Virus genome (UHGV): UHGV-0126577 | DNA: 28,400 nucleotides | Source: a virus | Direction: 5' to 3' (one strand) | Shown: positions 1 through 28,400 of the stretch, piece by piece | Numbering within the stretch: position 1 is the first letter of the stretch | Layout: every line of letters begins with the position of its first letter | Translations under genes and position numbers: made by a program | The notes under the pieces: generated by a model | The model's input: the letters and a program-made list of their open reading frames with translations, nothing else | What the model was told of the DNA's origin: nothing | Databases searched by the model: none

Positions 1-403
1 CCGGCAACGCCTTTTTAGCTTTGCGTGGGTTAACCACATGGCCTTTAGTCCAGTACTCGTAGAGCACATCGTCACACTCTTCCTGATACTGGATTACCTT
101 GTCGCGGATTTCAGGGCGGACTTTGTTAGGGCTGATGGTTTGCAACCAGCCAGCAAGTTTGCGAAGTGCCAAACAAATAATCTCACGGCGCTGTTCATCC
201 CCAGGAAGCTGCATTGTGATTTTCACAATGCAGGTTTTAAACCGCTGCTTCATTTTCGTAAACTGTGAAGCCCAATCCATACCCATGCCTTCAACGATAG
301 GTTTCATTGGGGTGTACGGTTCTCCGTTGTGATTGACAACATAAAGTTCTGCGCCGTGGAATGGCACGTTGATAGTAGATACCGCTGTTGCTATACTCGT
401 CAT
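1..403 (-). CDS. Phage antirepressor-like protein (Ant-like), N-terminal part; start at 403, 3' end beyond the window
   Basis: Minus-strand frame open from the ATG at 403-401 to position 1 (MTSIATAVSTINVPFHGAELYVVNHNGEPYTPMKPIVEGMGMDW...). Not in the ORF track because no stop falls in the window. Sits downstream of the Arc-like gene as ant does in P22 immI. Family assignment is from memory of Ant/Bro-N-type N-termini. Confidence 0.55.
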   Translation of the reverse strand, partial: MTSIATAVSTINVPFHGAELYVVNHNGEPYTPMKPIVEGMGMDWASQFTKMKQRFKTCIVKITMQLPGDEQRREIICLALRKLAGWLQTISPNKVRPEIRDKVIQYQEECDDVLYEYWTKGHVVNPRKAKKALP

Positions 404-475
404 GTCGTTAATTCCTATACGTAGTTTTACGATACTGAAGCCCTGACGGTCTGGCCACCGTTGGGCTTCGCTGTT

Positions 476-643
476 TTATGCCACGCTATTCTTCTCACCA
501 GTGAGTCCATACACTTTCCTCAGCTGATAGATAATCTCTGTATTGAACTTTCGGCATTCTTTTTCGCCATTTCTTTCAATAGCTAACTTCACATCGTCCG
601 GAAAACGAACCCGTCGTTGACACATCTCTTTTGCTTTTTGCAT
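476..643 (-). CDS. Arc-like ribbon-helix-helix repressor (55 aa)
   Basis: The ORF 476..679 is trimmed to the internal ATG at 643-641, which is preceded by AAGGAG with a 7-nt spacer. Product MQKAKEMCQRRVRFPDDVKLAIERNGEKECRKFNTEIIYQLRKVY... has an RHH-like beta-strand/helix pattern and lies between the mnt-like and ant-like genes. Confidence 0.6.
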   Translation of the reverse strand: MQKAKEMCQRRVRFPDDVKLAIERNGEKECRKFNTEIIYQLRKVYGLTGEKNSVA

Positions 644-763
644 TTCATATCTCCTTAGCCCCACCGTGGGGCAAAACAATTGTCACACCGTGCGTCATTG
701 ATGTCAAGCACACGGTGAGGCATACTTCAATCATTGCAAGTAACTCAATATTTGGTGAAGAAC
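644..763. promoter_or_regulatory. Divergent, overlapping promoter/operator region (Pant-like on minus, Pmnt-like on plus)
   Basis: Minus strand: perfect -35 TTGACA (complement of 702-707), 17-nt spacer, -10 GACAAT (complement of 679-684). Plus strand: -35 TTGATG 698-703, 17-nt spacer, -10 CATACT 721-726. Heptamer CACCGTG at 662-668 and 686-692 and its reverse complement CACGGTG at 711-717. GC-rich inverted repeat GCCCCA-CCG-TGGGGC at 658-672, just upstream of the Arc-like SD. Confidence 0.45.
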
Positions 764-1195
764 ATGAGCAGAGAAGATCCACAACTAAGGATCAGACTTC
801 CCGTTGAAGTAAAAGAAAAAATAGAAATTTCTGCAAAAGCCAATAAGCGATCAATGAACGCTGAAATAGTACAACGTCTTGACACCAGCTTTCTGAAAGA
901 TATTCATGAAGATGACGTAATTTCTGCTTATGAAGCAAAAATTATTGCAAACAATGCACGGCATGAAATATCAAATATTATTTTCAAAAGAACTTTTAAT
1001 GAAATCAATAAAAAAATAACACTTGGACATACAAGTTTTTATATAAACCTTAATGACCTTGAACTGGAATCACTTGCAGATAATGATTACCAGATCATCT
1101 TTGAAAAAACATTTAATAAGCTCAATGAACTAGGTTACATCATCTGTGAAAACTCATGGGATGCAGATGGTTTTGGAATTGAAATACCTGAATAG
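764..1195 (+). CDS. Mnt-like ribbon-helix-helix repressor with an extended AT-rich C-terminal domain (143 aa)
   Basis: The ORF 734..1195 is trimmed to the ATG at 764. N-terminus MSREDPQLRIRLPVEVKEKIEISAKANKRSMNAEIVQRLDTSF matches the Arc/Mnt RHH pattern (P22 Mnt has RMPMEVREKL...GRSMNSELLQIV). The C-terminal ~95 aa are encoded by markedly AT-rich DNA. Confidence 0.6.
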   Translation: MSREDPQLRIRLPVEVKEKIEISAKANKRSMNAEIVQRLDTSFLKDIHEDDVISAYEAKIIANNARHEISNIIFKRTFNEINKKITLGHTSFYINLNDLELESLADNDYQIIFEKTFNKLNELGYIICENSWDADGFGIEIPE

Positions 1196-1285
1196 GAAGA
1201 ACAAAAGGCGTGTACATATTACACGTCTTTAATACAATTGAAAAACGCCACATTACTGATGTATGTTACAACAAGGAGCGATATT

Positions 1286-1849
1286 TTGAAAACCATATCT
1301 ATATTAAAGGTTGCATTAGGCGTCGCTATTATTTTGACTCTCTCAATATTGTTTTATTTTTACCACAAAAAAACTGCTATTGCTCTTGATGGTCACGCGG
1401 CAAACTCATTTTTCTCAGAGTACATAGTGCCGCTATCAGGAAGCGGTATAACAAATAAATATACTGACTATGACATCAAATATGGAATTGATGATGGGGA
1501 GACTATTGCATTACATGTAATCATTAAAAACCTAATGACAGTAAATAAAAATACAGACTTCAACGATAAAAATACAATACATCACAACAACAGCAAAACA
1601 TTAATTTCTTATAGTAGCAACATCTATACGGATAAATACCTAAAATACATCTCAGAAGATACAATAAAAGCAACCAGCGAAAAGTTAAAAAACATATATT
1701 GTGCATCCGGCAGTTTTCACAAATTATCGCCGCAAGAGCGTTTATTCTACGAAGCAAGAAAACAACGTAAGTCAATAATATTACATTATTATGCTGATTC
1801 AGGGGAGTCACTCATATTTAATATTGGGGTTTCCCCTGAATCATGCTAA
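1286..1849 (+). CDS. Membrane-anchored orphan protein (cargo/moron; candidate superinfection-exclusion-type function)
   Basis: Track ORF is 1238..1849. The in-frame TTG at 1286 is preceded by AAGGAG (1273-1278, 7-nt spacer) and gives an N-terminus KTISILKVALGVAIILTLSILFYFY typical of a signal-anchor. The ATG at 1238 lies within a candidate -35 (TTGAAA 1238-1243), so the start is uncertain. Very AT-rich compared with neighbours. Occupies the position of sieA in P22. Confidence 0.5.
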   Translation: MKTISILKVALGVAIILTLSILFYFYHKKTAIALDGHAANSFFSEYIVPLSGSGITNKYTDYDIKYGIDDGETIALHVIIKNLMTVNKNTDFNDKNTIHHNNSKTLISYSSNIYTDKYLKYISEDTIKATSEKLKNIYCASGSFHKLSPQERLFYEARKQRKSIILHYYADSGESLIFNIGVSPESC

Positions 1850-1860: not shown

Positions 1861-4800
1861 TCACCGCATCACCGGATCCACCTGGTTTATTAGTGGCGCA
1901 ATCCAGAACAGGTTATTGCCTGGTATCAGGGTTCGGACATTATGCACAATACGATCACCGGCATCACCATTCAACACTCCTGCGGTCACATCAATGATGC
2001 TATCCGCAAGACCAAATGACGGTCCGAATAGAGATCCTACGAATCCACGACTGGCATACCTAGACTGTGTGCCAGTGCCAAATAAAGCCCCCAGCCCAAC
2101 AGCACCACCAGTAGCCTTTTCAGCCATGTTGTTATATTCCATCAATGGCCCAAGAATACCGGATCTATCTATACCCTCAAGCACCAGCTTCTCTGGTGAC
2201 CAGTCAACATTTTTCCCTTTCGATGCTTCTTTTAGCGCATAGACCAGTGAGCCAAGAGCAATCTGAAATGCAGTGCCATAATAAAATTGCGCAGTTCCTT
2301 CCTGTAACCCACCAAGTAGCGCACGGTTGTATGAAGCCGTTGTGAATGATTTAAACTGAAATATCGTTCGCCCCATTGGAGTACTCGCCCATAAAGGTGT
2401 GTCACCAATACCGGGGGTGATGATAGTGTTATTAACGTCTTTCAGAACCGCTGACTGGAATACTCCGGCAACGTACTGATCGTCCCATTTATCAAAGTTA
2501 CCAATGTGCCATCCCTCAATTACCTCACCATGTTTCTCGAACTCACTGCGAATACGCGCAGCCATATTGTCGTTGATACCGAGTTTTGCCATGCGACGTG
2601 CAGAAAACGCACCAGACAAAATACCGTCTGACGTGAGCATTCCGTTCATGGATTTGTTTATGTCATTAAATCGATCCATGAGTGTCAGCTTGCCGAAGGC
2701 ATCAGTAATTCGCTCCATTCCTGCTTCGACTGCTGTTGTCCTGGAAGAACTGTCAACAAGATCACCAATTGCACGAGAACGTGAATGCAGTACAGCTTCC
2801 AATCCAATCCCCATCTTCAACATCTCTTCTTTGCTGGCCTTAAATGCCGGTGATTGGGATATCTGAGAAGCATAGCCTTTCATGGTGTTACGGAAACCAT
2901 TAACCATAACCCCTCTGGCCAGATCTGGAATAGCTGATACTGTCATTCCACCGAGTTTGGTCGTGAAGTTCACATCCCGCAGAAAAGCGCCAGCACGAAC
3001 AAAAAACGAAGACGGATCATCAGGCATACCATATGTACCAACAAGACGATCGCGTAATGCTGTTATGTCTCTGAGATCATTTGCTCTTGATTTTGAAAGT
3101 CTGGACTGTTCTTTCCGTAATTCCTTTTCGTACTTTCGCATTAATGAATCGAGTTTACCCTGAGGAACAACTTCACCATTGCTCTCATAACGTGCTTTCA
3201 GATTTGCCACACTTTCGTCATATTTCGCCTTTATTTTTTCAGGCACTTCCCGTAACAGACTGTCATATTCGTCCTCAATTAATTGCAGACGCTCAGTCAT
3301 AGTTCGTTTACCAAATGTTCTCGTCAACTCAATTTCTGCTGCCGCTTCACGGATATGACGTTGCAGCACGTAATTCACATCACTTTCAAGATAATCCCTG
3401 ATAAGACTATCAGGAACATTTAATGTTCTTTCTTTCGTACTACCTGCGGCTTTTACAGAAAATACGCTGACAAAATCCTGTGGAACCTTAGCACCAGTAA
3501 TTTTATTAATTACGATATCCGCTGCAATTTCAGCATCCTCAGGATCCAGTGTTTTATTTCCTCTCGACCACCAGTCAACCAAAATACGTCGAAATTTATC
3601 GCGTTCACTGATTATTTTTCCAACTTTATATATACGTGGAAAATAGCTTGCCTGGCCTAATGCTTTCAGTTCTTCATCTGGCGGTAATAAACCAAGCTTT
3701 TGCATTTCAACCTTCACCCGATTTAATACAGTTCGCATCGCCTGCGCCGTTTCCTGAACAACAGGATTAGCATGCACATCACCGCTTCGCATAGCATTCC
3801 CAACCTGCTGACGAAATGAATCAAAACTCATGTCGCCACCATCAGCTTTATACTTTGCGTATGCCTGTTTATTTCCGACAACAACAGCAGCTTCTTCACG
3901 CTGCCATCCACGTGTACGGGTTTCTACAGCTACCGGTGTTTCAATCCCCCTTTCATTTCCTTTAAGGGTGAAATTATTTTCGGCTAACTCCAGCGTTGTT
4001 TTTCGCACTGTCTTGGACGGAGACTCCATTAACCTTGTCAAAGGAGTAAGATAGCTCCCTGCTTTCCATGCAGCCTTTCCAACCCACCCACCGGAAACAG
4101 GGGTTAAATCATCCAGAGTCGCTGTATCAATTTTCATAGCACCAACACTACCACCATCAGAAAGCGAAGCGGCAGCCCTGTCAGTCGCTGATGTAATGCT
4201 CATATTATCAAGAGCATCAGCAACCTCACGTGTGGCTGCAGCCCGGACGGATGGCGAAAGCGCAACACCAGCACTGGCAAACACGCCGCTCATCATCGCA
4301 CCCGCTGCAACGTGAGCGGCACTTTCACCCCATGAGCGTGTTATTTGCTGATTATTCAGCACAACCTCGCTTAATGCTGTACCGGCAGCACCAATCGCAA
4401 TCTGTGAGCCAATACGCGCCAGTGCCCCTCCTTGAGCACCGGGGATAAACATTGACGCAACAGTAACCGGATCCATTCCCGCAGCAATACTGGCAAGAGT
4501 TCCAACTACGCCAGCATCAGACAATAAACGTCTGTCTTCATTTTCATCATCTATCTGCTGCTTAATCCACGCCGTTTCCTCTGGCGATCGGGAATCTGCA
4601 AATTTCGCCCCCCAGTATTCATAACCGTGCAACTCATTTTTATCAGCATATGGGTTATAACCTTCGACCAGTTCAAACTGTCTGGCTGGTCGGAAAAAAC
4701 CAGCCAGAATATTGTTCTGTCGCATTGCAGCCCCCCATACGGAAGGCTCCGGTGGCAATGGCTCAGGATTAGCCCCTTCCGGAAGGGCAACATCAAACCC

Positions 4801-4875
4801 AGTTTGTTCCGGCAAAACATTACCTGACGGGATCAGTCCGTTATTAAGATCTTCAGCTTGTGCATAAACTGGCAT
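1861..4875 (-). CDS. Large internal virion/ejection protein (T7 gp16-like position), 1004 aa
   Basis: Long ORF ending the structural operon. Its start overlaps the upstream stop (TAATG). Gly/Ala-rich regions. Call is by position after the gp14/gp15-like genes. Confidence 0.6.
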   Translation of the reverse strand: MPVYAQAEDLNNGLIPSGNVLPEQTGFDVALPEGANPEPLPPEPSVWGAAMRQNNILAGFFRPARQFELVEGYNPYADKNELHGYEYWGAKFADSRSPEETAWIKQQIDDENEDRRLLSDAGVVGTLASIAAGMDPVTVASMFIPGAQGGALARIGSQIAIGAAGTALSEVVLNNQQITRSWGESAAHVAAGAMMSGVFASAGVALSPSVRAAATREVADALDNMSITSATDRAAASLSDGGSVGAMKIDTATLDDLTPVSGGWVGKAAWKAGSYLTPLTRLMESPSKTVRKTTLELAENNFTLKGNERGIETPVAVETRTRGWQREEAAVVVGNKQAYAKYKADGGDMSFDSFRQQVGNAMRSGDVHANPVVQETAQAMRTVLNRVKVEMQKLGLLPPDEELKALGQASYFPRIYKVGKIISERDKFRRILVDWWSRGNKTLDPEDAEIAADIVINKITGAKVPQDFVSVFSVKAAGSTKERTLNVPDSLIRDYLESDVNYVLQRHIREAAAEIELTRTFGKRTMTERLQLIEDEYDSLLREVPEKIKAKYDESVANLKARYESNGEVVPQGKLDSLMRKYEKELRKEQSRLSKSRANDLRDITALRDRLVGTYGMPDDPSSFFVRAGAFLRDVNFTTKLGGMTVSAIPDLARGVMVNGFRNTMKGYASQISQSPAFKASKEEMLKMGIGLEAVLHSRSRAIGDLVDSSSRTTAVEAGMERITDAFGKLTLMDRFNDINKSMNGMLTSDGILSGAFSARRMAKLGINDNMAARIRSEFEKHGEVIEGWHIGNFDKWDDQYVAGVFQSAVLKDVNNTIITPGIGDTPLWASTPMGRTIFQFKSFTTASYNRALLGGLQEGTAQFYYGTAFQIALGSLVYALKEASKGKNVDWSPEKLVLEGIDRSGILGPLMEYNNMAEKATGGAVGLGALFGTGTQSRYASRGFVGSLFGPSFGLADSIIDVTAGVLNGDAGDRIVHNVRTLIPGNNLFWIAPLINQVDPVMR

Positions 4876-7592
4876 TATTTAGATCCCCACGAAAAGTAAT
4901 CTTTAAATTTGTCCATACGTTCGTTATGCAGGCGCTGATACTGCTCATCCAGAGCGCGATGCTTGTCTTTGAAGTTTCGTATAGCCTGTCCACGCATAAT
5001 TTCTTCCTGCTCGTACTGCTCCCGTTCCTGCTGCATTTTCTTATAAGGTTCCCAATCTTCTAGTGATGGTTCCCAACGCATAGGACGCCCATGTTTGTTA
5101 TAAAACGGCTGGACCCGATCGATGCCATTTTCATCCTTAGTTCTTACCATAATGGCGTAATCACCATTACGAGGTGTTAACACGTCAGGGGTTATGAATA
5201 ATTCTCCATTAATACGACTCTCAGGGGTTTTTGTCTCAACTACAGGAGCATTACCTGACGTGATCCCAAGCAACGTCGGACTGGTTGTTATAATCTCTTT
5301 GCGCTCACCGTACATCAGCCGTTCTTTTTCAGCTTTCCACTGCGCCGCCTGCCAGCCTGACGGCCCATATTGATAAAGCGCCTCCGGTGCATATTTCATA
5401 AACTGCGCTTCTCCGTTAACCTCGCTGATACTCCAGGTGCGGGCTATCTGCTGGTTGGTCATTTGCTTCGCTACGTCAGCGTTACCACCAGCAACGCGGT
5501 AGTTAATGTCATACAGCGTCTGATAGTCATTACGGAATCTAGCTGCTTCCGGCGTCTGGTCATCCGCAGACGGATCCCAACGGAACCACTGCGCCATATT
5601 GCTGACAGCAGAATTCATCGCCTTGCTGCGATCATTTTTGTACTCTTTTGAACTCTGCGTTGATGCCAATTGAGCTTTAAGAGCATCGGTCTGGTTGTAC
5701 GTAAGGTTCTGCGCCTGCTCGATAGCCGCATCAGCAGACATGCCAGAATCAGTTAGTTGCTTAACAGTCAGATAAAAACCCTGCATATCCTTCGGCATAT
5801 TTCCAATAGATGCATTGTCTGTTTCATATAACCGACTAAACAGTTCAGCCGCATTTTTAACCACTTCCTGATTGCTGGATCGGGATACTGCTGAAAGCTG
5901 CGTGATGACCTGCGAAGGCATTATGCCAGTCTGAGCCACAAGCCGAACAACCCCATCATGAGTGGAGGCATCATTAATACGAAAGTTCTGCGCCATTTCT
6001 GTGTAATCAGCAGCTTTCTGCATTGACTTGTTGCTTGGGTCTAATTTTTCACCTATTGTCAGCGCCTCATTAAATCTGCGTGAATCCCGTTGCGCCTGAA
6101 TTGCTTCATTTGATCTCTGAAGCAATGCAGACAATTTTCCGTAAGCATCGAGTTTTAACGCATAGTGAGGATCGTTAACCTCAGGCTTCACTTTCTGCAT
6201 TTCTTCTTGCTGCTGAGAAGGAGGCAAATACTGAATTGCCTGGAATATTCTCGCGTTATCAATCGCTATATCCAGTTGGTTGATTATTTTATCTGCGTTT
6301 TTTCCATACCCCCTGATGATGGTCTCCTGAGCCGGTATATAATCTGGAACCTCACCGTTATATAGCTGGGCCATGGTGTTATTAATAGCTGGCTCAAGCT
6401 GTTCTAATATTAACTTCCTTTGCTTTTCTATCTGACTATTAGCAAGGTTATCTATTTGATAAATAGTCAGCGGATCCATTCCAGTTTTATTTTTTCTATA
6501 TCGGGAAAGCCACCCTTGTGTTTCTGATGGAAGATTTCTGATAAATTCTTCTTCTGATATTTCACCTTTACGTGGATCACCGACTTTGGCGATCAGTTTA
6601 TCCACGTTACCCATCCCCCAGTTATATGCTGCTCCGGCCAATATTTCGGAGCCGTACTTACCATACAGTTGATTTACATAGTCACTGGCGAGCATTTCAT
6701 GCTGTTGTTCGTCCGTAGGGTTGTATTCAACGCCACGCTTGGCCGCCAGTTCTTTCCCTGTGCCCGGCATTAACTGGTATTTCCCCTGGGCTCTCTCTCC
6801 AGAAGATGTTATCGGTCCTTCAAGAAGACTACCATCAGGATTAAAATGTCGATCACCTGATTCAACAAGGCGTATGGCACGCATGTCCATGCCTCCAGAA
6901 TCATTTTTCTGAAACAGACCATTTAGCCATCCTTCTGGATTGGCAGCGGCATAATTCTTCGCCCGCGTTTCTGTGGCACTGCGATCATCACTTTCTATTT
7001 CTTCCAGAATGCGTTCTTGTGACCATCCCCTGGCAGCTCCATATCTGGCAATGGCTACCATTCTGGAATTTCTGGCTAAAGTGGCAGTTTGCGGGTCATT
7101 CCAGGCATCCGCTTCATTTTGTATCCATAATTTTCTCGTTGCCTGATATTGCTCATCTTCATAGGCATTTGTCTGCCCTATCTCATGTCTGAGAACTCCA
7201 GTACTGAACTGAATTTTCTGTGTTCTGGCTTGTTGCAAAAACATATTTCTTGCTGCTTCATCAGTCAATGAAGCAGCTATTTCTTCCACATCCTGATCAA
7301 ATCCAGATATGTACTCTTGCCCCTTACCAATCGCATTTTTGCCTTGTTGTGCATAAAAACCGGTTTGAGGGTTATAAAGACGTTCATTGCTGCGCTGATT
7401 AAGCTGAAGGATGGCATCCTGAGACAATGCAACATTCGCTTTCTGCCTGGCTTCACCATATGCCACCGCATACTGATCTGCGACATTCGCCAGCACCTGA
7501 CCTGCTTGAGGAACATCGAAGGTTTGAAAACCACCGGTTTGCACACCACGACTTTGCACCTGGCGTCCGGATGTAGTAGGAACAACAGGCAT
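4875..7592 (-). CDS. Internal virion protein with lytic transglycosylase (SLT) domain, 905 aa
   Basis: SLT-like motif block in the translation: ...LVESGDRHFNPDGS...GKYQLMPGTGKEL...AYNWGMGNV. Strong SD AGGAGG 7 nt upstream of the ATG at 7592. Confidence 0.7.
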   Translation of the reverse strand: MPVVPTTSGRQVQSRGVQTGGFQTFDVPQAGQVLANVADQYAVAYGEARQKANVALSQDAILQLNQRSNERLYNPQTGFYAQQGKNAIGKGQEYISGFDQDVEEIAASLTDEAARNMFLQQARTQKIQFSTGVLRHEIGQTNAYEDEQYQATRKLWIQNEADAWNDPQTATLARNSRMVAIARYGAARGWSQERILEEIESDDRSATETRAKNYAAANPEGWLNGLFQKNDSGGMDMRAIRLVESGDRHFNPDGSLLEGPITSSGERAQGKYQLMPGTGKELAAKRGVEYNPTDEQQHEMLASDYVNQLYGKYGSEILAGAAYNWGMGNVDKLIAKVGDPRKGEISEEEFIRNLPSETQGWLSRYRKNKTGMDPLTIYQIDNLANSQIEKQRKLILEQLEPAINNTMAQLYNGEVPDYIPAQETIIRGYGKNADKIINQLDIAIDNARIFQAIQYLPPSQQQEEMQKVKPEVNDPHYALKLDAYGKLSALLQRSNEAIQAQRDSRRFNEALTIGEKLDPSNKSMQKAADYTEMAQNFRINDASTHDGVVRLVAQTGIMPSQVITQLSAVSRSSNQEVVKNAAELFSRLYETDNASIGNMPKDMQGFYLTVKQLTDSGMSADAAIEQAQNLTYNQTDALKAQLASTQSSKEYKNDRSKAMNSAVSNMAQWFRWDPSADDQTPEAARFRNDYQTLYDINYRVAGGNADVAKQMTNQQIARTWSISEVNGEAQFMKYAPEALYQYGPSGWQAAQWKAEKERLMYGERKEIITTSPTLLGITSGNAPVVETKTPESRINGELFITPDVLTPRNGDYAIMVRTKDENGIDRVQPFYNKHGRPMRWEPSLEDWEPYKKMQQEREQYEQEEIMRGQAIRNFKDKHRALDEQYQRLHNERMDKFKDYFSWGSK

Positions 7593-8158
7593 CAGTAACC
7601 TCCTATTTTGAATCGGGAGTCAGAATTCATAAAACCTGAGTTAGATAACATTGGCGTGTTTCCTTGCTTACTAATCGGATTGATACTTCCGCCACCCAAC
7701 TTATATGCACCGTATGCTTTTAGTGGTGCCGTTAACAAAGTGCTGGTCATCGATGATTTAGCAGCCGACTGAGCAGCAGCCCCCTGTGCCTGAGCATTCA
7801 TTCCCTGAACCTGATACCCATATGCCTCACGCTGAGCATTATTCACTGTCGTTAACGCATCAAGAGTGCCGAACTGAGCATTATCCGCAAAAACGTCAAG
7901 AGCTGTTCCGCTACTTAATTCCGCACCGGTAGCCCCCATAGTGGCCGCCGCAGTGCCTGAGCGTTGACGCATTTCACGACGACGCTGATCCGCTTCAATA
8001 TTCCCACGATTGATTGAATCCTGTGCCTGAGCTTCAGCAATTTCAGCATTCCGATCAGCTATGGCTGACTGGTATTTTGCCTGCTTGCTCTGGCTGTACA
8101 TTGACGCGGCTGTGGATGCCACTGTGACGGCAACCAAAGCGATGGCTGGGTTACACAT
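7592..8158 (-). CDS. Internal virion protein (T7 gp14-like), 188 aa
   Basis: Begins MC..., Ala/Gln-rich and low complexity, like T7 gp14. Start and stop overlap the neighbouring genes. Confidence 0.5.
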   Translation of the reverse strand: MCNPAIALVAVTVASTAASMYSQSKQAKYQSAIADRNAEIAEAQAQDSINRGNIEADQRRREMRQRSGTAAATMGATGAELSSGTALDVFADNAQFGTLDALTTVNNAQREAYGYQVQGMNAQAQGAAAQSAAKSSMTSTLLTAPLKAYGAYKLGGGSINPISKQGNTPMLSNSGFMNSDSRFKIGGY

Positions 8159-8622
8159 TATTTTCTCTCCATGTGAAATCTGTGGAAATTAAGACCAAGA
8201 GCACCATAAGGCGCGGCTTCTTCAAGCCTGAATCCAAGCCAGTGCAGCCATGCTTTGGCAACATGGTTTCGCTCGTCGACGTAGTTTTCCAGGCGCGGAT
8301 AAACTGCCAGCATCTGCTGCAATACAGGGCGGCAGTGGCGAAGAAATGTCTTCTGATATTTTTCAATACGGCTGGTTCCTACCAGCCAGGGCGTACCATT
8401 GCCACCGATCATTGACGCCGGAGATACGCCAAACATGGTTACCAGTTCTCCGTTCGCAAATCCTGACCAGGCCATAGTCGCAGTGCGAAGACCAACACGC
8501 AGCGCATCTTCGGTAGTCATCAGTGATACCGCATACAGTTCGTCAATATCAGCCTGACGAACATCCGGCAAAATCATCTGAAGATGCTCTTCGGTTGCGG
8601 GAATAATTTGAACATCGATCAT
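8158..8622 (-). CDS. Virion-associated protein (gp13-like position), 154 aa
   Basis: Translationally coupled ORF between the gp12-like and gp14-like genes. Function not recognisable from sequence. Confidence 0.45.
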   Translation of the reverse strand: MIDVQIIPATEEHLQMILPDVRQADIDELYAVSLMTTEDALRVGLRTATMAWSGFANGELVTMFGVSPASMIGGNGTPWLVGTSRIEKYQKTFLRHCRPVLQQMLAVYPRLENYVDERNHVAKAWLHWLGFRLEEAAPYGALGLNFHRFHMERK

Positions 8623-12090: not shown

Positions 12091-12100
12091 CGATATCACC

Positions 12101-14286: not shown

Positions 14287-14288
14287 GA

Positions 14289-17184: not shown

Positions 17185-17607
17185 ATGAAAACAGCCGACA
17201 TGCTAGCTAAATATCTAAATGAATGGCCGTGCAAATATGTACGCATTGTTCAGGGTGATGATTCAATTTTTTATGGTGTTTTTGCAGGAAATGAAATGCT
17301 TTGTGAAGCAATTCCAGGTGAGCGACTTGCCGGGTTAACGCTTAGCGATGACCATGGAATAGGAGTTACTTGCCATGACTGGATTTCAGCGCAGAAAACT
17401 GAAATGGAAAAAGGCAATGTGTTTGATATTTCTCGCGCTGTATACGCCAAAGAAAAAAGTGATGATGATTACATGCGCGAAAACTTATACAACATGAAGT
17501 TACAATGCCTGGCTGAAGTGCTTAGTAAAAGATCTTTACTTGATGTGGTTGGTGCTGAGCAGGACGCCAAGGCAATCAACGCCGCATTCGATAAAATAAC
17601 CTTCTAA
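17185..17607 (+). CDS. Orphan protein linked to the tRNA (140 aa), function unknown
   Basis: Strong SD AAGGTGAG 5 nt upstream of the ATG. Opposite strand to the flanking structural and terminase genes. Followed by a strong terminator. Moderately AT-rich. Confidence 0.65.
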   Translation: MKTADMLAKYLNEWPCKYVRIVQGDDSIFYGVFAGNEMLCEAIPGERLAGLTLSDDHGIGVTCHDWISAQKTEMEKGNVFDISRAVYAKEKSDDDYMRENLYNMKLQCLAEVLSKRSLLDVVGAEQDAKAINAAFDKITF

Positions 17608-25295: not shown

Positions 25296-25526
25296 TCATG
25301 AGTAGAAGAAGTATGCCAGTTCTGCTTTTGAGCGCAGCCATTGTCTTGTTTTACAGGCTTTAAAAAGCCCATTCATCAATACTTTACCTGGCATTTTTCG
25401 CTTACCTGTTAAGTGAGTCTGGATATAGTGACTCGTCGTTCCGGCTTCCTGTGCGAAGGCTTCACGCTCATCCGGAGTAAGTGCAAGCCAGTGCTTTTTG
25501 AAATCGAAATGTCCGTTATCGCTCAT
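25296..25526 (-). CDS. Cro-like HTH regulator (76 aa)
   Basis: First gene of the minus-strand early operon, divergent from the CI-like gene. Helix-turn-helix-like segment REAFAQEAGTTSHYIQTHLTGKRK. Confidence 0.55.
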   Translation of the reverse strand: MSDNGHFDFKKHWLALTPDEREAFAQEAGTTSHYIQTHLTGKRKMPGKVLMNGLFKACKTRQWLRSKAELAYFFYS

Positions 25527-25562: not shown

Positions 25563-25625
25563 TCACCCATAAGGTAACAAAAATCAAGAATAGTTACCTA
25601 TGAGGTGCATTTACCTGTTGGGTAA
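25563..25625. promoter_or_regulatory. OR-like tripartite operator with divergent promoters
   Basis: Three palindromes: TCACCCATAAGGTAA 25563-25577, TTACCTATGAGGTGC 25594-25608, TTACCTGTTGGGTAA 25611-25625. Minus-strand promoter candidate: -35 TTGTTA, 17-nt spacer, -10 TATTAT, with the first operator in the spacer. Confidence 0.5.
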
Positions 25626-25680: not shown

Positions 25681-26265
25681 ATGAAAAGTATCCAGGACGT
25701 CCGCAGGCAAAATCTCAACGACTTGATCGACCGTGAATTCAATGGTGTTCAGACGCGGATGGCTGAAAAACTTGGAACTCAGGCAAATCTGGTAAACCGC
25801 TGGGCTCTTGGCAAGAAGGTTATCGGCGACCAGGTTGCACGAAAAATTGAAGCTGCCGCCAATAAACCCCGTAACTGGCTTGATATCGATCGCTCGCTTT
25901 CTCAGGAAGGTTTTCAGCCTGTCGGCCCAAGCGACATTGGCCAGCTGGCGGCTCACAACCTGGAACGCTGGATGAGCGAAAGCCGCGACCTTTCAACACA
26001 GGGAAAACTTCACCGCGCATCCGGCGTAGCCCAGGTGACAATCAGCCGCCTATTAAACAATGAGGTCAGCGTTTCCATTTCCACCCTGGAGAATGTTGCA
26101 TCCGCATTCGGGCGTCACGGCTATGAATTACTGATTCACCCGCACGACCCTGCGACCATCAACTATGATCGCTCGCGCTACGCATTGTTACCCGAAACCG
26201 AGAAAGCAAAGATCGAAAGTTACATTGAATTTGTCATCAACCAGAACGAAAAAAACAAACAATAA
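25681..26265 (+). CDS. CI-like repressor with two HTH domains and no S24 peptidase domain (194 aa)
   Basis: XRE-type HTH at about aa 20-70 (...VQTRMAEKLGTQANLVNRWALGKKVIGDQVARKIEAAANKPRNWL...) and a second HTH-like segment at about aa 110-160. No Ser-Lys autocleavage domain by size or sequence. Divergent from the cro-like gene. Confidence 0.65.
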   Translation: MKSIQDVRRQNLNDLIDREFNGVQTRMAEKLGTQANLVNRWALGKKVIGDQVARKIEAAANKPRNWLDIDRSLSQEGFQPVGPSDIGQLAAHNLERWMSESRDLSTQGKLHRASGVAQVTISRLLNNEVSVSISTLENVASAFGRHGYELLIHPHDPATINYDRSRYALLPETEKAKIESYIEFVINQNEKNKQ

Positions 26266-26285: not shown

Positions 26286-26309
26286 AAGCCGCCTTATGGC
26301 GGCTTTTTT
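26286..26309 (+). terminator. Rho-independent terminator after the CI-like gene
   Basis: AAGCCGCC-ttat-GGCGGCTT hairpin followed by TTTTTT. Confidence 0.7.
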
Positions 26310-26322
26310 ATTGCCTATTCGA

Positions 26323-26413
26323 TTACCTAACGGGTAATTTTTTTAACTCATATCTATTGACATCAAACCATATAAGCATAATTATTACCTTAACGGTAAC
26401 AGACCGAGGTAAC
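26323..26413 (+). promoter_or_regulatory. PL-like promoter with OL-like operators
   Basis: Operators TTACCTAACGGGTAA 26323-26337 and TTACCTTAACGGTAA 26385-26399, plus a half-site GAGGTAA at 26406-26412. Perfect -35 TTGACA at 26357-26362, 17-nt spacer, -10 AATTAT at 26380-26385. Confidence 0.5.
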
Positions 26414-26418
26414 AAGTT

Positions 26419-26571
26419 ATGCAGTGGAAAATCATCAACGGTTGGTACTGCGTTACTGCATGCGGATTCATGAGCTGGAAGTTCCGCACCTTACAGGAAG
26501 GCATTAAGTGGGCTTTCGTCAGCAAAGAAGCTCGCGATGTGGCCAACGATAACGAGATATGGGAGGGCTGA
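26419..26571 (+). CDS. Small protein (50 aa), first gene of the PL-like operon
   Basis: ATG at 26419 with GAGGT 6 nt upstream. Not in the ORF track (under 60 aa). Weak N-terminal resemblance to lambda CIII (MQYAIAGW versus MQWKIINGW), which is speculative. Confidence 0.35.
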   Translation: MQWKIINGWYCVTACGFMSWKFRTLQEGIKWAFVSKEARDVANDNEIWEG

Positions 26572-26573
26572 TA

Positions 26574-26873
26574 ATGAACGTTAATCAGCAGAAAAATCTT
26601 CAAAAAATCATGCTGGCATTCGACAAGGACTACCGCCTGTCAGAACAGCTATATGACCGACAAGTTGAACTGATTGAGAGCATCCGACTTCATCAACTGT
26701 CCTCAACTTTCGACGTTGTAACAGGCAAAGGCGTTCGTCAGGAAGTGCTGGAGGCTGCTAAAGACAGCCCTGAGTTCGAAGAACTGATGGATGCCTATCG
26801 GCGAGAGGCAATGGCAATTATCGCCCGCTGGGATCTGGCGGATCAGCTTGATGGACAGAGGGACGCGGCATGA
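26574..26873 (+). CDS. Hypothetical protein (99 aa)
   Basis: The track ORF starts at 26559. The ATG at 26574 has GGAGGG 6 nt upstream. Its stop overlaps the exonuclease start (ATGA). Confidence 0.5.
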   Translation: MNVNQQKNLQKIMLAFDKDYRLSEQLYDRQVELIESIRLHQLSSTFDVVTGKGVRQEVLEAAKDSPEFEELMDAYRREAMAIIARWDLADQLDGQRDAA

Positions 26874-27691
26874 ATCCGGGAATTTATTTCGATATCAGCA
26901 ACGAAGACTACCACGCCGGTGACGGCGTGAGTAAGTCGCAACTGGACATGGTTGCCAAGAATCCGGCGCTTCTTAAATGGGTTCAGGCAGCACCAGAAGA
27001 CGAAGAGAAAAAGTCTGCACTGGATATGGGAACCGCATTGCACTGTCTGCTTCTGGAGCCTGGAGAGTTCGACAAACGCTTCATTGTTTCACCGAAATTC
27101 GATCGTCGGACGAAACAAGGTAAAGCTGACGAAGAGGCATTTCTTCGTGATGTGGCGGATATGGGGATTACGGTACTTGATGCCGAGCAGTGGCGGAAAC
27201 TGGAGCTGATGCGTGATAGCGCAATGGCTCACCCGGCGGCACGCTGGATGCTGGAAGCACCTGGTTACTGCGAAGCATCAATGTACTGGAACGATGAAGA
27301 TACTGGTGAGTTGTGCCGCATTCGTCCAGACAAATGGCTGAACGAGCACAACGTGATCATCGACGTGAAAAAGGTTGCAGATATGGACCGTTTTGCACGT
27401 CACATCGAGGAATTCCGCTACCACGTGCAGGACGCAATGTACCGCGAAGGCGCAATGAGGGTTACTGGTCAGCCGCATGGTTTTTTCTTTCTTGCCGTGA
27501 GCGAAAGCATTGATTGTGGTCGGTATCCGGTACGCGTGTTCGAGCTGGATGCGCCGGATGTCGATGCCGGGCACGCTCTGTTCCGCCGGGATCTGAATAC
27601 CTATCACGAATGCCGCATCAACGATGAGTGGGGCGGAGTGGAAATTATTAAACGCCCTGACTGGGCACGTAAACAGGATATGTACGTATGA
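26870..27691 (+). CDS. YqaJ/lambda-Exo-type recombination exonuclease (273 aa)
   Basis: PD-(D/E)XK-type core ...IRPDKW...IIDVKKV...EEFRYHVQDAMY... typical of YqaJ-like viral recombinases. Directly upstream of, and overlapping, the RecT-like gene. Confidence 0.75.
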   Translation: MNPGIYFDISNEDYHAGDGVSKSQLDMVAKNPALLKWVQAAPEDEEKKSALDMGTALHCLLLEPGEFDKRFIVSPKFDRRTKQGKADEEAFLRDVADMGITVLDAEQWRKLELMRDSAMAHPAARWMLEAPGYCEASMYWNDEDTGELCRIRPDKWLNEHNVIIDVKKVADMDRFARHIEEFRYHVQDAMYREGAMRVTGQPHGFFFLAVSESIDCGRYPVRVFELDAPDVDAGHALFRRDLNTYHECRINDEWGGVEIIKRPDWARKQDMYV

Positions 27692-28400
27692 GCAATGATA
27701 TCGCAATCACATCACAACCAGGCGCAACTGTAGGCACTGCTGCGGCAATCTTCAGCCCCGAGGGAATGAATCAACTGGTGCGTTTCGCTGAGTTGATGTC
27801 ACAAAGCAAAGCGACTGTACCGAAACATCTTGAAGGCAAACCTGCCGATTGCCTGGCGGTGACCATGCAGGCGGCACAGTGGGGAATGAACCCTTTCGCC
27901 GTGGCGCAGAAAACGCATGTGGTAAACGGAACGTTAGGCTACGAAGCACAGTTGGTAAACGCGGTCGTATCCTCGTCAAGCCTGCTGGCGACACGCCTGA
28001 ATTATCGCTGGAGCGGTGACTGGTCGAATGTTAACGGCAAAACAGATAAATCACCGAATCTGACGGTAACTGTGTCAGCAGTTCTTAAAGGAGAAGCAGA
28101 ACCACGTGAGCTTACCATCAGTATGGCGCAAGCCGGAGTGCGTAACTCTCCATTGTGGGAACAGGATCCTCGCCAGCAGCTTGCCTATCTTTGCACGAAA
28201 CGATGGGCTCGCCTGCACGCTCCTGATGTACTTCTCGGTGTTTACACCCCTGACGAATTACAGGAAACGGCACCGCGCGTTGAACGAGACATTACTCCGC
28301 AAACAACTACTGCTGCGGGAATGAACAGTCTGATCAACGCTAAACCAGTGAAAAAGCCTGATGAGCAAACGCGTAAAGCGGATAGCCGTGATCCAGAAGA
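27688..28400 (+). CDS. RecT/Red-beta-type single-strand annealing recombinase, N-terminal part (runs off the window)
   Basis: Frame open from the ATG at 27688 to the window end. Motif ...AQWGMNPFAVAQKTHVVNGTLGYEAQL... is RecT-like. Paired with the upstream exonuclease. Confidence 0.7.
   Translation, partial: MSNDIAITSQPGATVGTAAAIFSPEGMNQLVRFAELMSQSKATVPKHLEGKPADCLAVTMQAAQWGMNPFAVAQKTHVVNGTLGYEAQLVNAVVSSSSLLATRLNYRWSGDWSNVNGKTDKSPNLTVTVSAVLKGEAEPRELTISMAQAGVRNSPLWEQDPRQQLAYLCTKRWARLHAPDVLLGVYTPDELQETAPRVERDITPQTTTAAGMNSLINAKPVKKPDEQTRKADSRDPE

Follow-up and report, generated by a model that had tools for sequence, protein, structure and literature searches.

Related phages and the extent of the window

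Described relatives of the prophage analysed here include TL-2011b, a near-identical phage, and the related phiV10 and epsilon15 of the genus Uetakevirus, both of them short-tailed podoviruses; the phage group comprises this genus and its close relatives. A relation of the tail of the epsilon15-type lineage to that of T7 was published in 2016, and the epsilon15 capsid and terminase were grouped with those of siphoviruses (Hardies et al. 2016, PMC4819975). ZX5, another close relative, was described as a short-tailed podovirus; over-expression of its ORF21 repressor, whose sequence is reportedly the same as that of the phiV10 repressor, blocked lytic growth, and the antirepressor tested in this phage was a Bro-type protein, different from the Ant encoded here (PMC9782041).

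The window, i.e., the whole stretch of DNA analysed, is 28.4 kb long and makes up about two-thirds of a prophage, with the tailspike and lysis genes, the integrase, and the attachment sites lying outside it. By sequence comparison, the window is 97.8% identical to TL-2011b over 83% of its first 25 kb, and in 41 complete genomes of E. coli at least 80% of these 25 kb is present. The integration site of the TL-2011b-like prophage in related E. coli genomes is adjacent to guaA, and the full prophage extends from yfgI to guaA and carries the integrase, tailspike, and lysis genes. From terS to the gp14 homologue, the window proteins are 34 to 94% identical to epsilon15 gp1–gp14, mostly at least 60%. 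The window thus very probably represents about two-thirds of a TL-2011b-like prophage that appears to be intact, or to have been so until recently, and that belongs to the temperate, short-tailed epsilon15/phiV10 group, in agreement with the temperate podovirus proposed in an earlier note on this DNA. The three kinds of module named there, virion, early, and immI, are all present, but the mosaic they form is not new: it is that of the known TL-2011b/phiV10/epsilon15 lineage, an ordinary E. coli prophage.

Head and packaging genes

The virion genes occupy the minus strand between position 19719, where terS starts, and position 1861. Those for packaging and the head are arranged in the following order, interrupted by a tRNA gene and one protein gene, which form a plus-strand island of opposite direction:

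19123..19719, minus strand: terS, terminase small subunit, Terminase_2 family (Pfam PF03592, E 1.4e-29)
17651..19126, minus strand: terL, terminase large subunit, non-T7 type (phrog_2, E 1e-52)
17185..17607, plus strand: p140, accessory gene ('Gp49 family'; phrog_4846, PGAP name from a relative)
16910..16986, plus strand: tRNA-Arg, anticodon TCT (ARAGORN; Rfam tRNA, 73.3 bits)
16276..16482, minus strand: p68, small conserved protein, heading the portal operon (phrog_831)
14582..16261, minus strand: portal protein, T7 gp8 family (Pfam PF12236, E 1.6e-187)
14289..14585, minus strand: Bbp19-like small head-module protein (Pfam Phage_Bbp19, E 2.8e-17)
13591..14292, minus strand: p233, 'protease' in the annotation of relatives (phrog_458 'protease')
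12590..13576, minus strand: major capsid protein, epsilon15 gp7/BPP-1 type (Pfam GP7, E 2.8e-149)
12101..12538, minus strand: capsid cement protein, Bbp16 family (Pfam Bbp16, E 3.4e-46)
11755..12099, minus strand: p114, small protein, homologue of epsilon15 gp9 (phrog_590; 40% identity)

Both terminase subunits are encoded upstream of the portal gene and neither is of the T7 type: the small terminase gp18 of T7 belongs to PF11123, unlike TerS (its start at 19719 was set by alignment with epsilon15 and TL-2011b), while the large subunit, 94% identical to epsilon15 gp2, has no match to the Pfam families of T7 gp19. p68 is a homologue of epsilon15 gp3 (88% identity). The portal protein shares its Pfam family with T7 gp8, as expected from the C-terminal cue picked up in the earlier note; it gives reciprocal matches to phrog_332 and phrog_449, and matches the solved Carin-1 portal (8CK0) with E 6e-179. 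The capsid protein scores 412.8 bits against NCBIfam MCP_gp7_epsi_15 (cut-off 75), matches the BPP-1 (3J4U, E 8e-129) and epsilon15 (3J40, E 3e-86) structures, and falls outside the Gp10A-like Pfam family of T7. No peptidase match was found for p233 in Pfam, NCBIfam, or PDB; its N-terminus is of low complexity and its C-terminus helical, and its position and composition make a scaffolding protein the more likely assignment. The predicted head is of the epsilon15/BPP-1 type, with an HK97-fold capsid protein and a Bbp16 cement protein, and would be filled by a non-T7 terminase via a portal of the gp8 family.

Tail and ejection proteins

Downstream of p114 come the genes of the tail and the internal core:

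11093..11698, minus strand: p201, tubular tail protein A, the tail adaptor, with a T7 gp11 fold (AF2 model, Foldseek)
8622..11093, minus strand: p823, tubular tail protein B, the tail nozzle, with a T7 gp12 fold (sequence, AF2, Foldseek, hhalign)
8158..8622, minus strand: p154, T7 gp13-type internal virion protein (phrog_308, E 9e-63)
7592..8158, minus strand: p188, T7 gp14-family core protein (Pfam PF24072 T7_gp14, 32.9 bits, cut-off 27)
4875..7592, minus strand: p905, internal virion protein with a lytic transglycosylase domain, in gp15 position (Pfam SLT)
1861..4875, minus strand: p1004, T7 gp16-type internal virion (ejection) protein without the lytic domain (phrog_342)

The AF2 model of p201 (pLDDT 87.7) matches in Foldseek the Carin-1 adaptor chain 8CK1_E (E 8e-16) and T7 gp11 (7BOX, E 1.8e-6, TM 0.58–0.62). 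p823 matches the solved Carin-1 nozzle 8CK1_A already by sequence (E 2e-216), and its model (pLDDT 90.6) matches T7 gp12 (7EY9, 6R21, 7BOY) with E from 1e-21 to 1e-25 and TM 0.52–0.55; hhalign with T7 gp12 gives E 9.9e-5. The gp11/gp12 likeness noticed earlier in the N-termini extends to the predicted structures, with only 12–14% identity between the two models and the solved T7 proteins.

Among the core proteins, p154 shares phrog_308 with T7 gp13 (E 1e-42 for the latter), and p188, the Ala/Gln-rich protein starting with MCNPAIALVA that had been singled out as gp14-like, indeed passes the Pfam family to which T7 gp14 belongs and is 60% identical to epsilon15 gp14. The SLT domain of p905 spans residues 263–342 (Pfam, E 1.1e-7), and the protein shows 31% identity to residues 13–142 of T7 gp16. 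p1004 covers positions 203–1225 of the 1235 of phrog_342 (E 1.4e-208), the PHROG of T7 gp16, and in tblastn directly matches gp16-type proteins of Autographiviridae, e.g., that of Ralstonia RSB1 (E 8e-8). The two largest proteins differ from the alleles of epsilon15 and phiV10, the likeness of p905 to epsilon15 gp15 being limited to the first ca. 250 amino acids and p1004 having no match to epsilon15 gp16/gp17, so their roles are assigned from PHROG and domain matches only.

The homology of the virion genes is demonstrated, while the roles of their products would follow those of solved relatives. By analogy with these, the short tail would consist of a gp11-type adaptor of 12 subunits and a gp12-type nozzle of six. 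The gp13-, gp14-, and gp16-type proteins and the SLT-bearing one would be packaged inside the head as a core and, as in T7, ejected on infection to cut the cell wall and form an envelope-spanning channel.

The immI cassette

The left end of the window (1–1195) is a genuine P22-type immI cassette, including the sar antisense RNA, followed by a gene in sieA position:

1..403, minus strand: ant, encoding the N-terminal portion of an antirepressor of the P22 type (Pfam P22_AR_N, E 8.3e-44)
405..472, plus strand: sar antisense RNA (Rfam RF00262, 45.2 bits, gathering score 43; E 2.5e-6 for the whole window)
476..643, minus strand: arc-like gene, 55 amino acids, heading the ant operon (position of arc; 'Arc-like repressor' in the TL-2011b annotation)
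764..1195, plus strand: mnt-like gene, 143 amino acids, divergent from arc–ant (Pfam Arc, E 1.1e-14)
1238..1849, plus strand: gene of a membrane-type protein (phrog_8033, unknown function; 35% G+C)

ant starts with an ATG at 403 and continues past the left end of the window; its product is 48% identical to residues 17–130 of P22 Ant, and the DNA of positions 1–469 is 82–86% identical to that of the P22-like phages CUS-3 and S.Kent 1-2-1. sar is complementary to the arc–ant spacer and the ant ribosome-binding site, is preceded by a promoter-like site (TTGATA-17-TATACT, 369–397), and ends with a terminator stem (448–467) followed by a T-run, a layout identical to that annotated in P22. The arc-like product resembles P22 Arc weakly (32% over 40 amino acids, E 0.005 in a tiny database) and has no Pfam match. 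A Pant-like promoter flanked by an inverted repeat lies at 707–679. The Mnt-like protein has an Arc/ribbon-helix-helix N-terminus and an additional C-terminal part; it shows 32% identity with P22 Mnt across 88 aligned positions (E 2e-12) and matches phrog_795, the family whose name is used for the annotation of P22 mnt. No similarity to P22 SieA was found for the product of 1238..1849, which is assigned by position only. The P22-like immI proposed earlier is therefore borne out by Ant, the Mnt-like protein, sar, and the location between the ejection and tailspike genes, which is the same in P22.

The early region

The early region occupies 19.8–28.4 kb and is organized around divergent CI-like and Cro-like genes:

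19838..20185, minus strand: p115, putative regulator of transcription, encoded immediately ahead of the virion genes (phrog_536 'transcriptional regulator', E 5.6e-54)
20291..23215, minus strand: variable accessory ('nin-like') region (DUF551, Ea22-like, DUF7739, DUF1064/resolvase-like)
23333..24133, minus strand: lambda P-family helicase loader (Pfam Phage_lambda_P, E 1.5e-56; phrog_109)
24115..24930, minus strand: replication initiator with an HTH_36 N-terminus and a DnaT C-terminus (Pfam; phrog_1032)
25296..25526, minus strand: cro-like gene, heading the rightward early operon, divergent from the repressor gene (phrog_35, E 5.6e-13)
25681..26265, plus strand: prophage repressor p194 (CI-like) with two helix-turn-helix regions (Pfam HTH_3, YdaS-type HTH)
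26870–27691, plus strand: RecE-type PD-(D/E)XK exonuclease (Pfam DUF3799, E 1e-21; phrog_412 'exonuclease VIII')
27688 onward, plus strand: RecT, cut by the window end at 28400 (Pfam RecT, E 8e-32)

p115 is conserved (80% identity to epsilon15 gp49), with no match in Pfam, NCBIfam, or PDB, and the cro-like product is 76% identical to epsilon15 gp39. In Pfam the repressor matches HTH-type families only, a YdaS-type HTH at residues 21–61 and HTH_3 at 106–147, and no Peptidase_S24 (LexA-like peptidase). The lambda-like regulation, replication, and recombination inferred earlier hold in part: the architecture, the P homologue, and the origin-like iterons (a TCCCGTTTTTGGGA-type repeat occurring six times within the initiator gene, 24527–24679) are shared with lambda. 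However, the initiator is of the DnaT/HTH_36 type, recombination of the RecE/RecT type rather than Red, no homologue of lambda N or Q was detected in the window, and the repressor lacks an S24 match.

Relation to T7 and P22

The genes for the portal, adaptor, nozzle, and internal core are homologous to T7 genes 8 and 11–16 and follow the same order, which makes the T7 tail and DNA-ejection proteins distant relatives of those encoded here. Direct pairwise BLASTP and phmmer searches against T7 proteins reveal nothing beyond the SLT domain and a weak signal for gp16, so the T7-like cues reflect remote homology, not close similarity. Such an order, together with Pfam or PHROG families common to both for gp8, gp13, gp14, and gp16, could be expected of a true T7-family phage (Autographiviridae-derived) turned temperate, with its RNAP gene and promoters outside the window. 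This reading is hardly credible, since the capsid, the protein in scaffold position, both terminase subunits, and the DNA replication genes are all non-T7, and it is refuted by complete relatives free of an RNAP gene: none is present in the TL-2011b, phiV10, and epsilon15 genomes or in the full MSB1_8B prophage. tblastn with T7 RNAP gave nothing better than E 1 in the window and two complete relatives, and the best window match to the 23-nt T7 promoter consensus has seven mismatches. The complete relatives likewise contain no T7 promoter. The earlier note, which saw no such promoter and presumed transcription by the host, was right on both points; its T7-like virion module stands for the portal, adaptor, nozzle, core proteins, and gene order, but not for the capsid, cement protein, and terminase, and the closest lineage is TL-2011b/phiV10/epsilon15.

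P22 is likewise a temperate podovirus under lambdoid regulation, and the immI cassette, with its ant–sar DNA so close to that of P22-like phages, would suit a prophage of the Lederbergvirus type. The virion genes make this very improbable: in BLASTP no virion protein of the window matches its P22 counterpart at E ≤0.05, the portal is of the gp8 family, the adaptor model that fits T7 gp11 reaches only E 0.86 with P22 gp4, and the nozzle is about 16 orders of magnitude closer to T7 gp12 than to P22 gp10 (Foldseek E 2e-8, hhalign E 0.11 for gp10). Moreover, the needle and homologues of gp23(Q) and gp24(N) are absent. A defective remnant of a phage, no longer forming particles, is less improbable but still unlikely; the window is only a part of the element, and the accessory region at 20.3–22.6 kb shows patchy identity to relatives, with pseudogenes there in MSB1_8B. 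Nevertheless, the essential virion, replication, and control genes of the window are all full-length ORFs of the same lengths as in plaque-forming relatives, and the regulatory sites are intact.

Putative operators and proposed control of lysogeny

The TL-2011b-like prophage carries a putative operator motif, ATTACC-N5-GGTAAT, in seven exact and three one-mismatch copies, all of them intergenic or at a start codon although only 6.7% of the window is intergenic; this count was not reached in any of 100 shuffles. In the epsilon15 RefSeq record this motif occurs at equivalent positions and is annotated as repressor-binding, including the copies that precede terS and the portal operon. The sites and their surroundings are as follows:

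16573..16587, no strand: putative repressor operator TTACCTTTCAGGTAA, exact match, upstream of the p68–portal operon
19719..19788, minus strand: pre-terS control region, a terminator-like hairpin (19788–19771) followed by two operators
23219..23295, no strand: two exact operators between the P and DUF1064 genes (motif match)
25563..25625, no strand: OR, three operators (25563, 25594, 25611) between the cro-like and CI-like genes
26286..26399, plus strand: terminator past the repressor gene and, beyond it, a PL-like promoter (26357–26385) flanked by two exact operators (26323, 26385)

The position of the site before the portal operon is conserved, its epsilon15 equivalent (2931–2947) being annotated as repressor-binding. 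The terS operators (19751–19737, exact; 19733–19719, one mismatch) overlap the ribosome-binding site and start codon of terS; this control region is conserved in epsilon15 (12–27, annotated as repressor-binding), phiV10, and TL-2011b. The pair between P and DUF1064 is also found in epsilon15 (35907, 35969) and phiV10, and in the relatives an operator lies upstream of the tailspike gene as well. Late control probably acts through p115 and the terminator-plus-operators arrangement ahead of terS. The palindrome could also function as a small RNA hairpin masking the terS and p114b ribosome-binding sites.

As no phage RNAP is present, the virion genes must be transcribed by the host RNA polymerase, which would carry out all transcription. 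The two-HTH repressor, with no self-cleavage domain matched, would bind the motif at OR, OL, the internal early site, and before terS and the portal operon, as suggested by the sequence and the annotation of relatives. With operators at both early and virion promoters, one repressor would silence both gene sets directly. Since it is not expected to cleave itself, derepression probably proceeds via antirepressors, of which the immI cassette would supply Ant, restrained by the sar antisense RNA and by two repressors, one Mnt-like and the other Arc-like.

Lineage and prophage context

The window represents about two thirds of a temperate phage of a known kind, as follows from the identity of its relatives and from their genomic context. 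In a megablast comparison of its first 25 kb with 50,697 phage records, the best match is TL-2011b (acc. no. NC_019445; origin in an EHEC O103:H25 outbreak strain), with an identity of 97.8% at 83% query coverage. Next come the phiV10-type phages EC.W1-9, PAS61, phiv142-3, ZX5, and phiV10 (ca. 97–98% identity over 45–61%, with phiV10 itself at 45%), and the epsilon15-type Salmonella phages show ca. 77% identity in the structural genes (over 33% for epsilon15). The first megablast also returned 65 Synechococcus phages, which were rejected as relatives because they match by tRNA-Arg similarity alone (91% over 68 nt). According to the records, the genus Uetakevirus has two named species, epsilon15 and phiV10, while the TL-2011b record gives no genus.

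At least 80% of the first 25 kb is carried by 41 of 5,426 complete E. coli genomes, and prophages of the TL-2011b type are common in both pathogenic and commensal strains. In the best genome match, strain MSB1_8B, the prophage is ca. 41 kb in size and lies between yfgI and guaA, with a tyrosine integrase gene toward guaA and the tailspike and lysis genes at the opposite side. The guaA-side integrase, the tailspike, and the lysis cassette lie outside the window and are found in the near-identical prophages. For ZX5, phiV10, and epsilon15, a P4-type integrase and integration at the guaA 3' end have been reported (PMC9782041), and the related E. coli prophages likewise lie next to guaA. ZX5 has been reported to be short-tailed (PMC9782041), and the authors describing Ab31 compare its virion, among lytic Podoviridae, with that of epsilon15 and of phiV10. 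The tail proteins of the window fit podovirus adaptor and nozzle folds.

The likeness to TL-2011b comprises the immI cassette (the P22-type module at the left end of the window; 96.6% identity), common alleles of the p905 and p1004 genes (99.6% for p1004), and the tail, head, terminase, repressor, and recombination genes, all of which lie within matching DNA. The two differ in the accessory genes at ca. 20.3–22.6 kb and in the initiator and loader genes, which bear other annotated names in TL-2011b. With phiV10 and epsilon15 the window shares the genome plan and the gene order. It is homologous to epsilon15 from terS to the gp14 gene, with 94% identity of TerL, 88% of the nozzle, 85% of the adaptor, and 81% of the portal protein.

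Gene organization

Nearly all genes of the window are located on the minus strand. Proteins designated p68, p114, and so on are named by their length in amino acids.

Genes of the window, with coordinates, strand, and description
25526–25296, minus strand: cro-like gene of the early operon, followed by a small Zn-finger-like gene
24930–24115, minus strand: initiator gene
24133–23333, minus strand: gene of the lambda P-type loader
23215–20291, minus strand: variable accessory block
20185–19838, minus strand: p115, a conserved small regulator, followed by terS and terL
Between terL and p68, plus strand: island of tRNA-Arg(TCT) and one accessory gene
Following the island, minus strand, in transcription order: p68, portal, Bbp19-like protein, p233, capsid, Bbp16 cement protein, p114
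Following p114, minus strand for the virion genes, in transcription order: adaptor p201, nozzle p823, p154, p188, p905, p1004, then immI
25681–26265, plus strand: repressor gene, followed by a terminator, a PL-like promoter, two small genes, and the genes for a PD-(D/E)XK exonuclease and RecT

The tRNA-Arg(TCT) gene (16910–16986, plus strand) is situated between terL and the portal operon, in a direction opposed to that of the virion genes. In phiV10 (PhiV10p04) and TL-2011b (gp24) a 252-nt CDS for a hypothetical protein is annotated between the homologue of the p140 gene of the window and the portal operon. The window ORF of the same length (16916–17167, minus strand) overlaps the tRNA-Arg gene on the opposite strand, and therefore the 252-nt CDS of both phages is probably a mis-annotation.

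Portal, tail, and internal core

The earlier note described the virion module as a whole as T7-like. That description holds for the portal, the tail tube, and the internal core, as judged from profiles and folds, but not for the head shell and the packaging enzyme, which belong to other families. The gene order, with portal followed by adaptor, nozzle, gp13, gp14, and gp15/16 counterparts, is that of T7. When 15 window proteins were compared with 15 T7 proteins by BLASTP and phmmer, only two signals were found, one from the SLT (lytic transglycosylase) domain, with 31% identity between residues 224–354 of p905 and residues 13–142 of T7 gp16, and the other a faint one between p1004 and gp16. 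Homology to gp15 was undetectable in these searches, as it was for Hardies et al. (PMC4819975). Since pairwise searches detect so little, the relationship to T7 is remote, and pairwise sequence comparison is too weak an instrument for the T7 question.

Protein families are more informative for four of the proteins. The portal protein belongs to Pfam PF12236 (E 1.6e-187) together with T7 gp8, and each of the two matches the PHROG of the other. p188 matches the Pfam family T7_gp14 with 32.9 bits (cut-off 27), and p154 and T7 gp13 have phrog_308 in common. p1004 shares phrog_342 with T7 gp16 and spans positions 203–1225 of the profile, that is, all but the N-terminal lytic domain; a tblastn search with it also finds gp16-type Autographiviridae proteins directly, among them that of Ralstonia RSB1 (E 8e-8). 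The SLT lytic domain is nevertheless present in the core, on p905, the protein neighbouring the gp16-type one: in the window it lies in the middle of a protein in the gp15 position, whereas in T7 it forms the N-terminus of gp16.

The adaptor and the nozzle have no Pfam or PHROG family in common with T7, the Pfam families Tube and Phage_nozzle being unmatched, and for this reason their folds were tested. The AlphaFold2 model of p201 (pLDDT 87.7) matches the Carin-1 connector in Foldseek (E 8e-16) and T7 gp11 (7BOX, 6R21, 7EY7) with E 2e-6 to 9e-5 (best 1.8e-6), probability 1.00, and TM 0.54–0.62, the identity to T7 being at best 12–14%; P22 gp4 reaches only E 0.86. The model of p823 (pLDDT 90.6) matches the Carin-1 nozzle with E 4e-87 and TM 0.91, and T7 gp12 over the whole length (7EY9, 6R21, 7BOY) with E 1e-21 to 1e-25, TM 0.52–0.55, and Foldseek probability 1.00, while P22 gp10 is far weaker (E 2e-8). 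A sequence profile supports the same relationship. The first search for nozzle homologues gave only relatives at least 81% identical and thus no deep alignment, and an exhaustive representative search was used instead; the resulting profile of 36 diverse homologues aligned in hhalign with residues 350–466 of T7 gp12 (E 9.9e-5; P22 gp10 control, E 0.11). This alignment falls within the gp12 segment 354–556 named by Hardies et al. in 2016 as linking the epsilon15, T7, phiRIO-1, and P22 groups (PMC4819975).

In phmmer searches against all PDB sequences p188, p1004, p233, and p115 gave no matches, and p905 matched only bacterial lytic transglycosylases. NCBIfam models gave nothing for the tail and core proteins, that of the capsid being the sole match. 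The closest relatives with solved structures are Carin-1 of Cobetia (PDB 8CJZ, 8CK0, 8CK1) and BPP-1 of Bordetella (3J4U). The former resembles the window in the nozzle (E 2e-216, with 44% identity in the fold alignment), the portal (E 6e-179), and the connector (E 4e-26), the latter in the capsid, and the Bbp16 and Bbp19 families are shared. These phages differ from the window in their hosts and life-style modules, the comparison having covered virion genes only.

The large ejection proteins are those of a different allele than in epsilon15 and phiV10, two in number (1861–7592) as opposed to three. p905 is like epsilon15 gp15 in its first ca. 250 residues only, and in BLASTP p1004 matches neither gp16 nor gp17 of epsilon15, nor p19 or p20 of phiV10. 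Apart from the TL-2011b homologue, the phage proteins closest to p1004 are those of a Klebsiella phage (36%) and of Vibrio podophages of ca. 32 kb (32%). From these comparisons it follows that the large ejection proteins come as a two-protein set in this lineage.

Head and packaging genes

The capsid protein belongs to the epsilon15 gp7 family (NCBIfam equivalog NF045672, 412.8 bits, cut-off 75; Pfam GP7, E 2.8e-149). It is only 44% identical to gp7 and is closest to that of BPP-1 (3J4U, E 8e-129), and it is accompanied by Bbp16 cement and Bbp19-like proteins. The capsid families differ between the window (PF20911, phrog_212) and T7 gp10 (PF21703, phrog_267), and the window has a cement protein, unlike T7. 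p233 and the T7 scaffold gp9 fall in different PHROGs. terS belongs to Terminase_2, as opposed to PF11123 for T7 gp18, and terL has no match to the families of T7 gp19, including PF22530. The terminase genes also differ in location, terS and terL lying upstream of the portal gene in the window and after the tail fibre gene in T7. Hardies et al. in 2016 grouped the terminase and capsid of epsilon15 with siphovirus lineages (PMC4819975).

The p233 gene (13591–14292) is labelled as coding for a protease, peptidase, or endoprotease in the relatives. Its product matched neither a peptidase family nor a protease of solved structure; the N-terminus is acidic, Pro-rich, and of low complexity, and the gene lies between the portal and capsid genes, in the position of a scaffold. 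p233 may be a mislabelled scaffolding protein.

The gap between the p114 and adaptor genes (11698–11755) is just 56 nt. In phiV10 (p13) and TL-2011b (gp32) a 324-nt homologue of epsilon15 gp10 is situated between these two genes. gp10 is the capsid "staple" of epsilon15, whose record cites in a note the solved capsid chain 3J40_N. The MSB1_8B prophage, like the window, has no gp10 homologue and keeps the Bbp16-type cement protein alone.

Early region

The regulation had earlier been called lambda-like, which proves right for the architecture, the P-family loader, and the iterons, but not for the type of initiator, the RecE/RecT recombination genes, the absence of an S24 match, or the absence of N and Q. 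As in lambda, the repressor gene and the cro-like gene point away from each other, separated by three operators (OR), and beyond the repressor gene come a terminator and then a PL-like promoter that has two operators (OL). PL leads to the recombination genes and, in the relatives, on to the excisionase and integrase genes. The rightward operon comprises the initiator gene and, after it, a gene coding for a protein of the lambda P family (PF06992, E 1.5e-56). Also as in lambda, the initiator gene contains internal iterons.

These are six iteron-like repeats (24527–24679) with the core ATCCCGTTTTTGGGAT, spaced by 18–24 nt with one spacing of 45, and they code for a repeated NGMLNDPK peptide. Judged by sequence, they form the probable replication origin.

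The initiator, in turn, is composed of HTH_36 and DnaT and is not a member of the lambda O family, while the exonuclease is of the RecE type (DUF3799, phrog_412), not Exo, and is paired with RecT. The 194-aa repressor has two HTH regions and matches HTH-type families only, with no S24 peptidase match in Pfam. No match to N or Q antiterminators was found in Pfam or PHROG among the scanned window proteins, and none is annotated in the complete relatives. Two further differences from lambda are the presence of operators also before the virion genes and the far-end location of the lysis genes, which follow the tailspike gene.

The P22-type immI cassette

The reading of the left end as a P22-like immI region is the best-supported part of the earlier description: Ant, the Mnt-like protein, sar, and the layout and position are all borne out, the match of the arc-like gene being marginal. 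As in P22, ant, sar, a mnt-like gene, and a candidate arc gene stand in the same relative orientation, and the cassette is flanked by the ejection-protein genes on one side and the tailspike gene on the other. The truncated gene at 1–403 matches P22_AR_N (E 8.3e-44) and its product is 48% identical to P22 Ant. Upstream of ant, in the position of arc, lies a gene for a 55-aa protein, together with a Pant-like promoter (TTGACA-17-GACAAT) with a flanking inverted repeat. Divergent from this promoter is the gene for a Mnt-like protein of 143 aa, of the Arc-type ribbon-helix-helix class, with 32% identity to P22 Mnt (E 2e-12) and ca. 60 extra C-terminal residues. The sar RNA (405–472; Rfam RF00262, 45.2 bits, gathering score 43) lies on the opposite strand of the arc–ant spacer, with a promoter-like site of its own within the start of ant (369–397) and a terminator (448–467) followed by a T-run. 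From this placement and these signals it follows that sar is antisense to the ribosome-binding site of ant, which it overlaps, as annotated in P22.

The weak point of the assignment is the arc-like gene, whose resemblance to Arc appears marginal at the sequence level (32% over 40 aa, E 0.005 in a 21-protein database, with no Pfam Arc match). The window differs from P22 also in the sieA position, which is occupied by an unrelated AT-rich gene for a membrane protein, and in the repressor that is the target, which is not of the S24-containing c2 type.

The ant–sar DNA is 82–86% identical to that of the P22-like CUS-3 and S.Kent 1-2-1, which shows recent exchange. The cassette is present in TL-2011b and absent from epsilon15 and phiV10; neither of the latter two has the P22-type arc–sar–ant–mnt arrangement, and phiV10 has a Bro-type antirepressor.

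The G+C content falls to 35% over 1000–2000, which comprises the C-terminal extension of the Mnt-like protein (gene at 764–1195) and the membrane-protein gene of unknown function (1238–1849). The latter resembles an imported accessory gene ("moron") and might have a role in superinfection exclusion. In the relatives, a YafO-family toxin gene, a Bro-N gene, and small accessory genes are located between immI/ant and the tailspike gene. This accessory region (8156–9095 in the full MSB1_8B prophage, L001, and 11585–12130 in the sequence of another relative, L002) lies outside the window and varies between TL-2011b and MSB1_8B.

Transcription of the virion genes

A tblastn search with T7 RNA polymerase gave nothing below E 1 in the window, the full MSB1_8B prophage, or TL-2011b, and no RNA polymerase is annotated in any of the complete relatives examined (the MSB1_8B prophage, TL-2011b, phiV10, and epsilon15). 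The best match of the window to the 23-nt T7 promoter consensus has 7 mismatches. The earlier failure to recognise a phage polymerase promoter by eye is thereby confirmed, and the search for the gene beyond the window gave the same answer. The virion genes must therefore be transcribed by host RNA polymerase, in agreement with what the note had presumed. The window thus differs from T7 in being temperate and in having neither the RNA polymerase, nor T7 promoters, nor T7 replication genes.

The palindrome TTACC-N5-GGTAA occurs in the window in seven exact copies and three with one mismatch. All 10 are intergenic or lie on a start codon, although intergenic DNA makes up just 6.7% of the window. 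When as many as two mismatches are allowed, 26 matches are observed as compared with 8.0 ± 2.6 in shuffled sequences.

Operator sites found by motif search
16573
19719–19751
23219–23295
25226
25563–25625
26323–26399

Apart from OR and OL, two sites overlap the ribosome-binding site of terS, directly after a conserved terminator hairpin. A further pair precedes the DUF1064 gene, and the remaining sites lie before the p68–portal operon and after the cro-like gene. The motif and the positions are alike in epsilon15 and are kept in phiV10, TL-2011b, and MSB1_8B, and the RefSeq record of epsilon15 annotates the equivalents (12–27, 2931–2947, 19895–19911, OL, and 35906–35922) as repressor-binding. 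The operator set is therefore a known, genus-wide feature. The repressors of epsilon15 and the window share only 42% identity, yet the motif is unchanged; as motif and repressor do not co-vary, the comparison offers no independent proof of which protein binds the operators. At the start sites of terS and p114b the palindrome may also act as an RNA hairpin.

Such a distribution suggests that one repressor would shut off the early and the virion operons directly, and that derepression would proceed through antirepressors, here the Ant of immI. The dependence on antirepressors is proposed because no self-cleavage domain is detected in the repressor. The likeliest positive late factor would be p115, 80% identical to epsilon15 gp49 and assigned to phrog_536 ("transcriptional regulator"). 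In ZX5, over-expression of the ORF21 repressor, reported to be identical in sequence to that of phiV10, abolished free phage, and a Bro-type antirepressor favoured the lytic cycle (PMC9782041); the antirepressor tested there thus differs in type from the Ant of the window.

Two other candidate control signals were rejected. A search for LexA boxes of the form CTGT-N8-ACAG yielded four loose matches; chance alone would give about as many, and none is near ant or the switch. A sigma-70-like promoter (19841–19812) upstream of the terS terminator, in an arrangement resembling lambda PR'–tR', has its −10 element deleted in epsilon15.

A perfect 12-bp palindrome, GTGACATGTCAC (19829–19840, minus strand), overlaps the end of p115 at its stop codon; the terminator and operators of terS follow downstream. 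It is kept in epsilon15 and TL-2011b, and its phiV10 counterpart has one substitution (GTGACATGTTAC). It is a candidate binding site for a further regulator.

Global silencing of the "stoperator-like" kind is known from mycobacteriophage L5. A comparable scheme can be put forward tentatively for the whole group, with rather more doubt than confidence: a single non-cleavable repressor with two HTH regions would directly silence the whole genome at about a dozen identical palindromic operators placed before every operon, those of the T7-type virion genes included, there would be no cascade of the N/Q type, and induction would depend wholly on antirepressors such as the imported Ant. If true, this would be a "stoperator-like" scheme in an enterobacterial podovirus, of which the mechanism alone would be new, the sites having already been annotated in epsilon15.

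Significance

The observation of a mosaic temperate podovirus is confirmed and its interpretation is partly supported. The lineage has already been sequenced and partly characterised, and its link to T7 was published in 2016 by Hardies et al. (PMC4819975). Little is at stake in the assignment, by which the window is filed under a known phage lineage and the label "T7-like" is corrected to fit the portal, the tail tube, and the ejection proteins only. The window provides a clean example of module exchange between podovirus groups, as within an epsilon15-type backbone it combines a P22 immI cassette with another allele of the ejection proteins.
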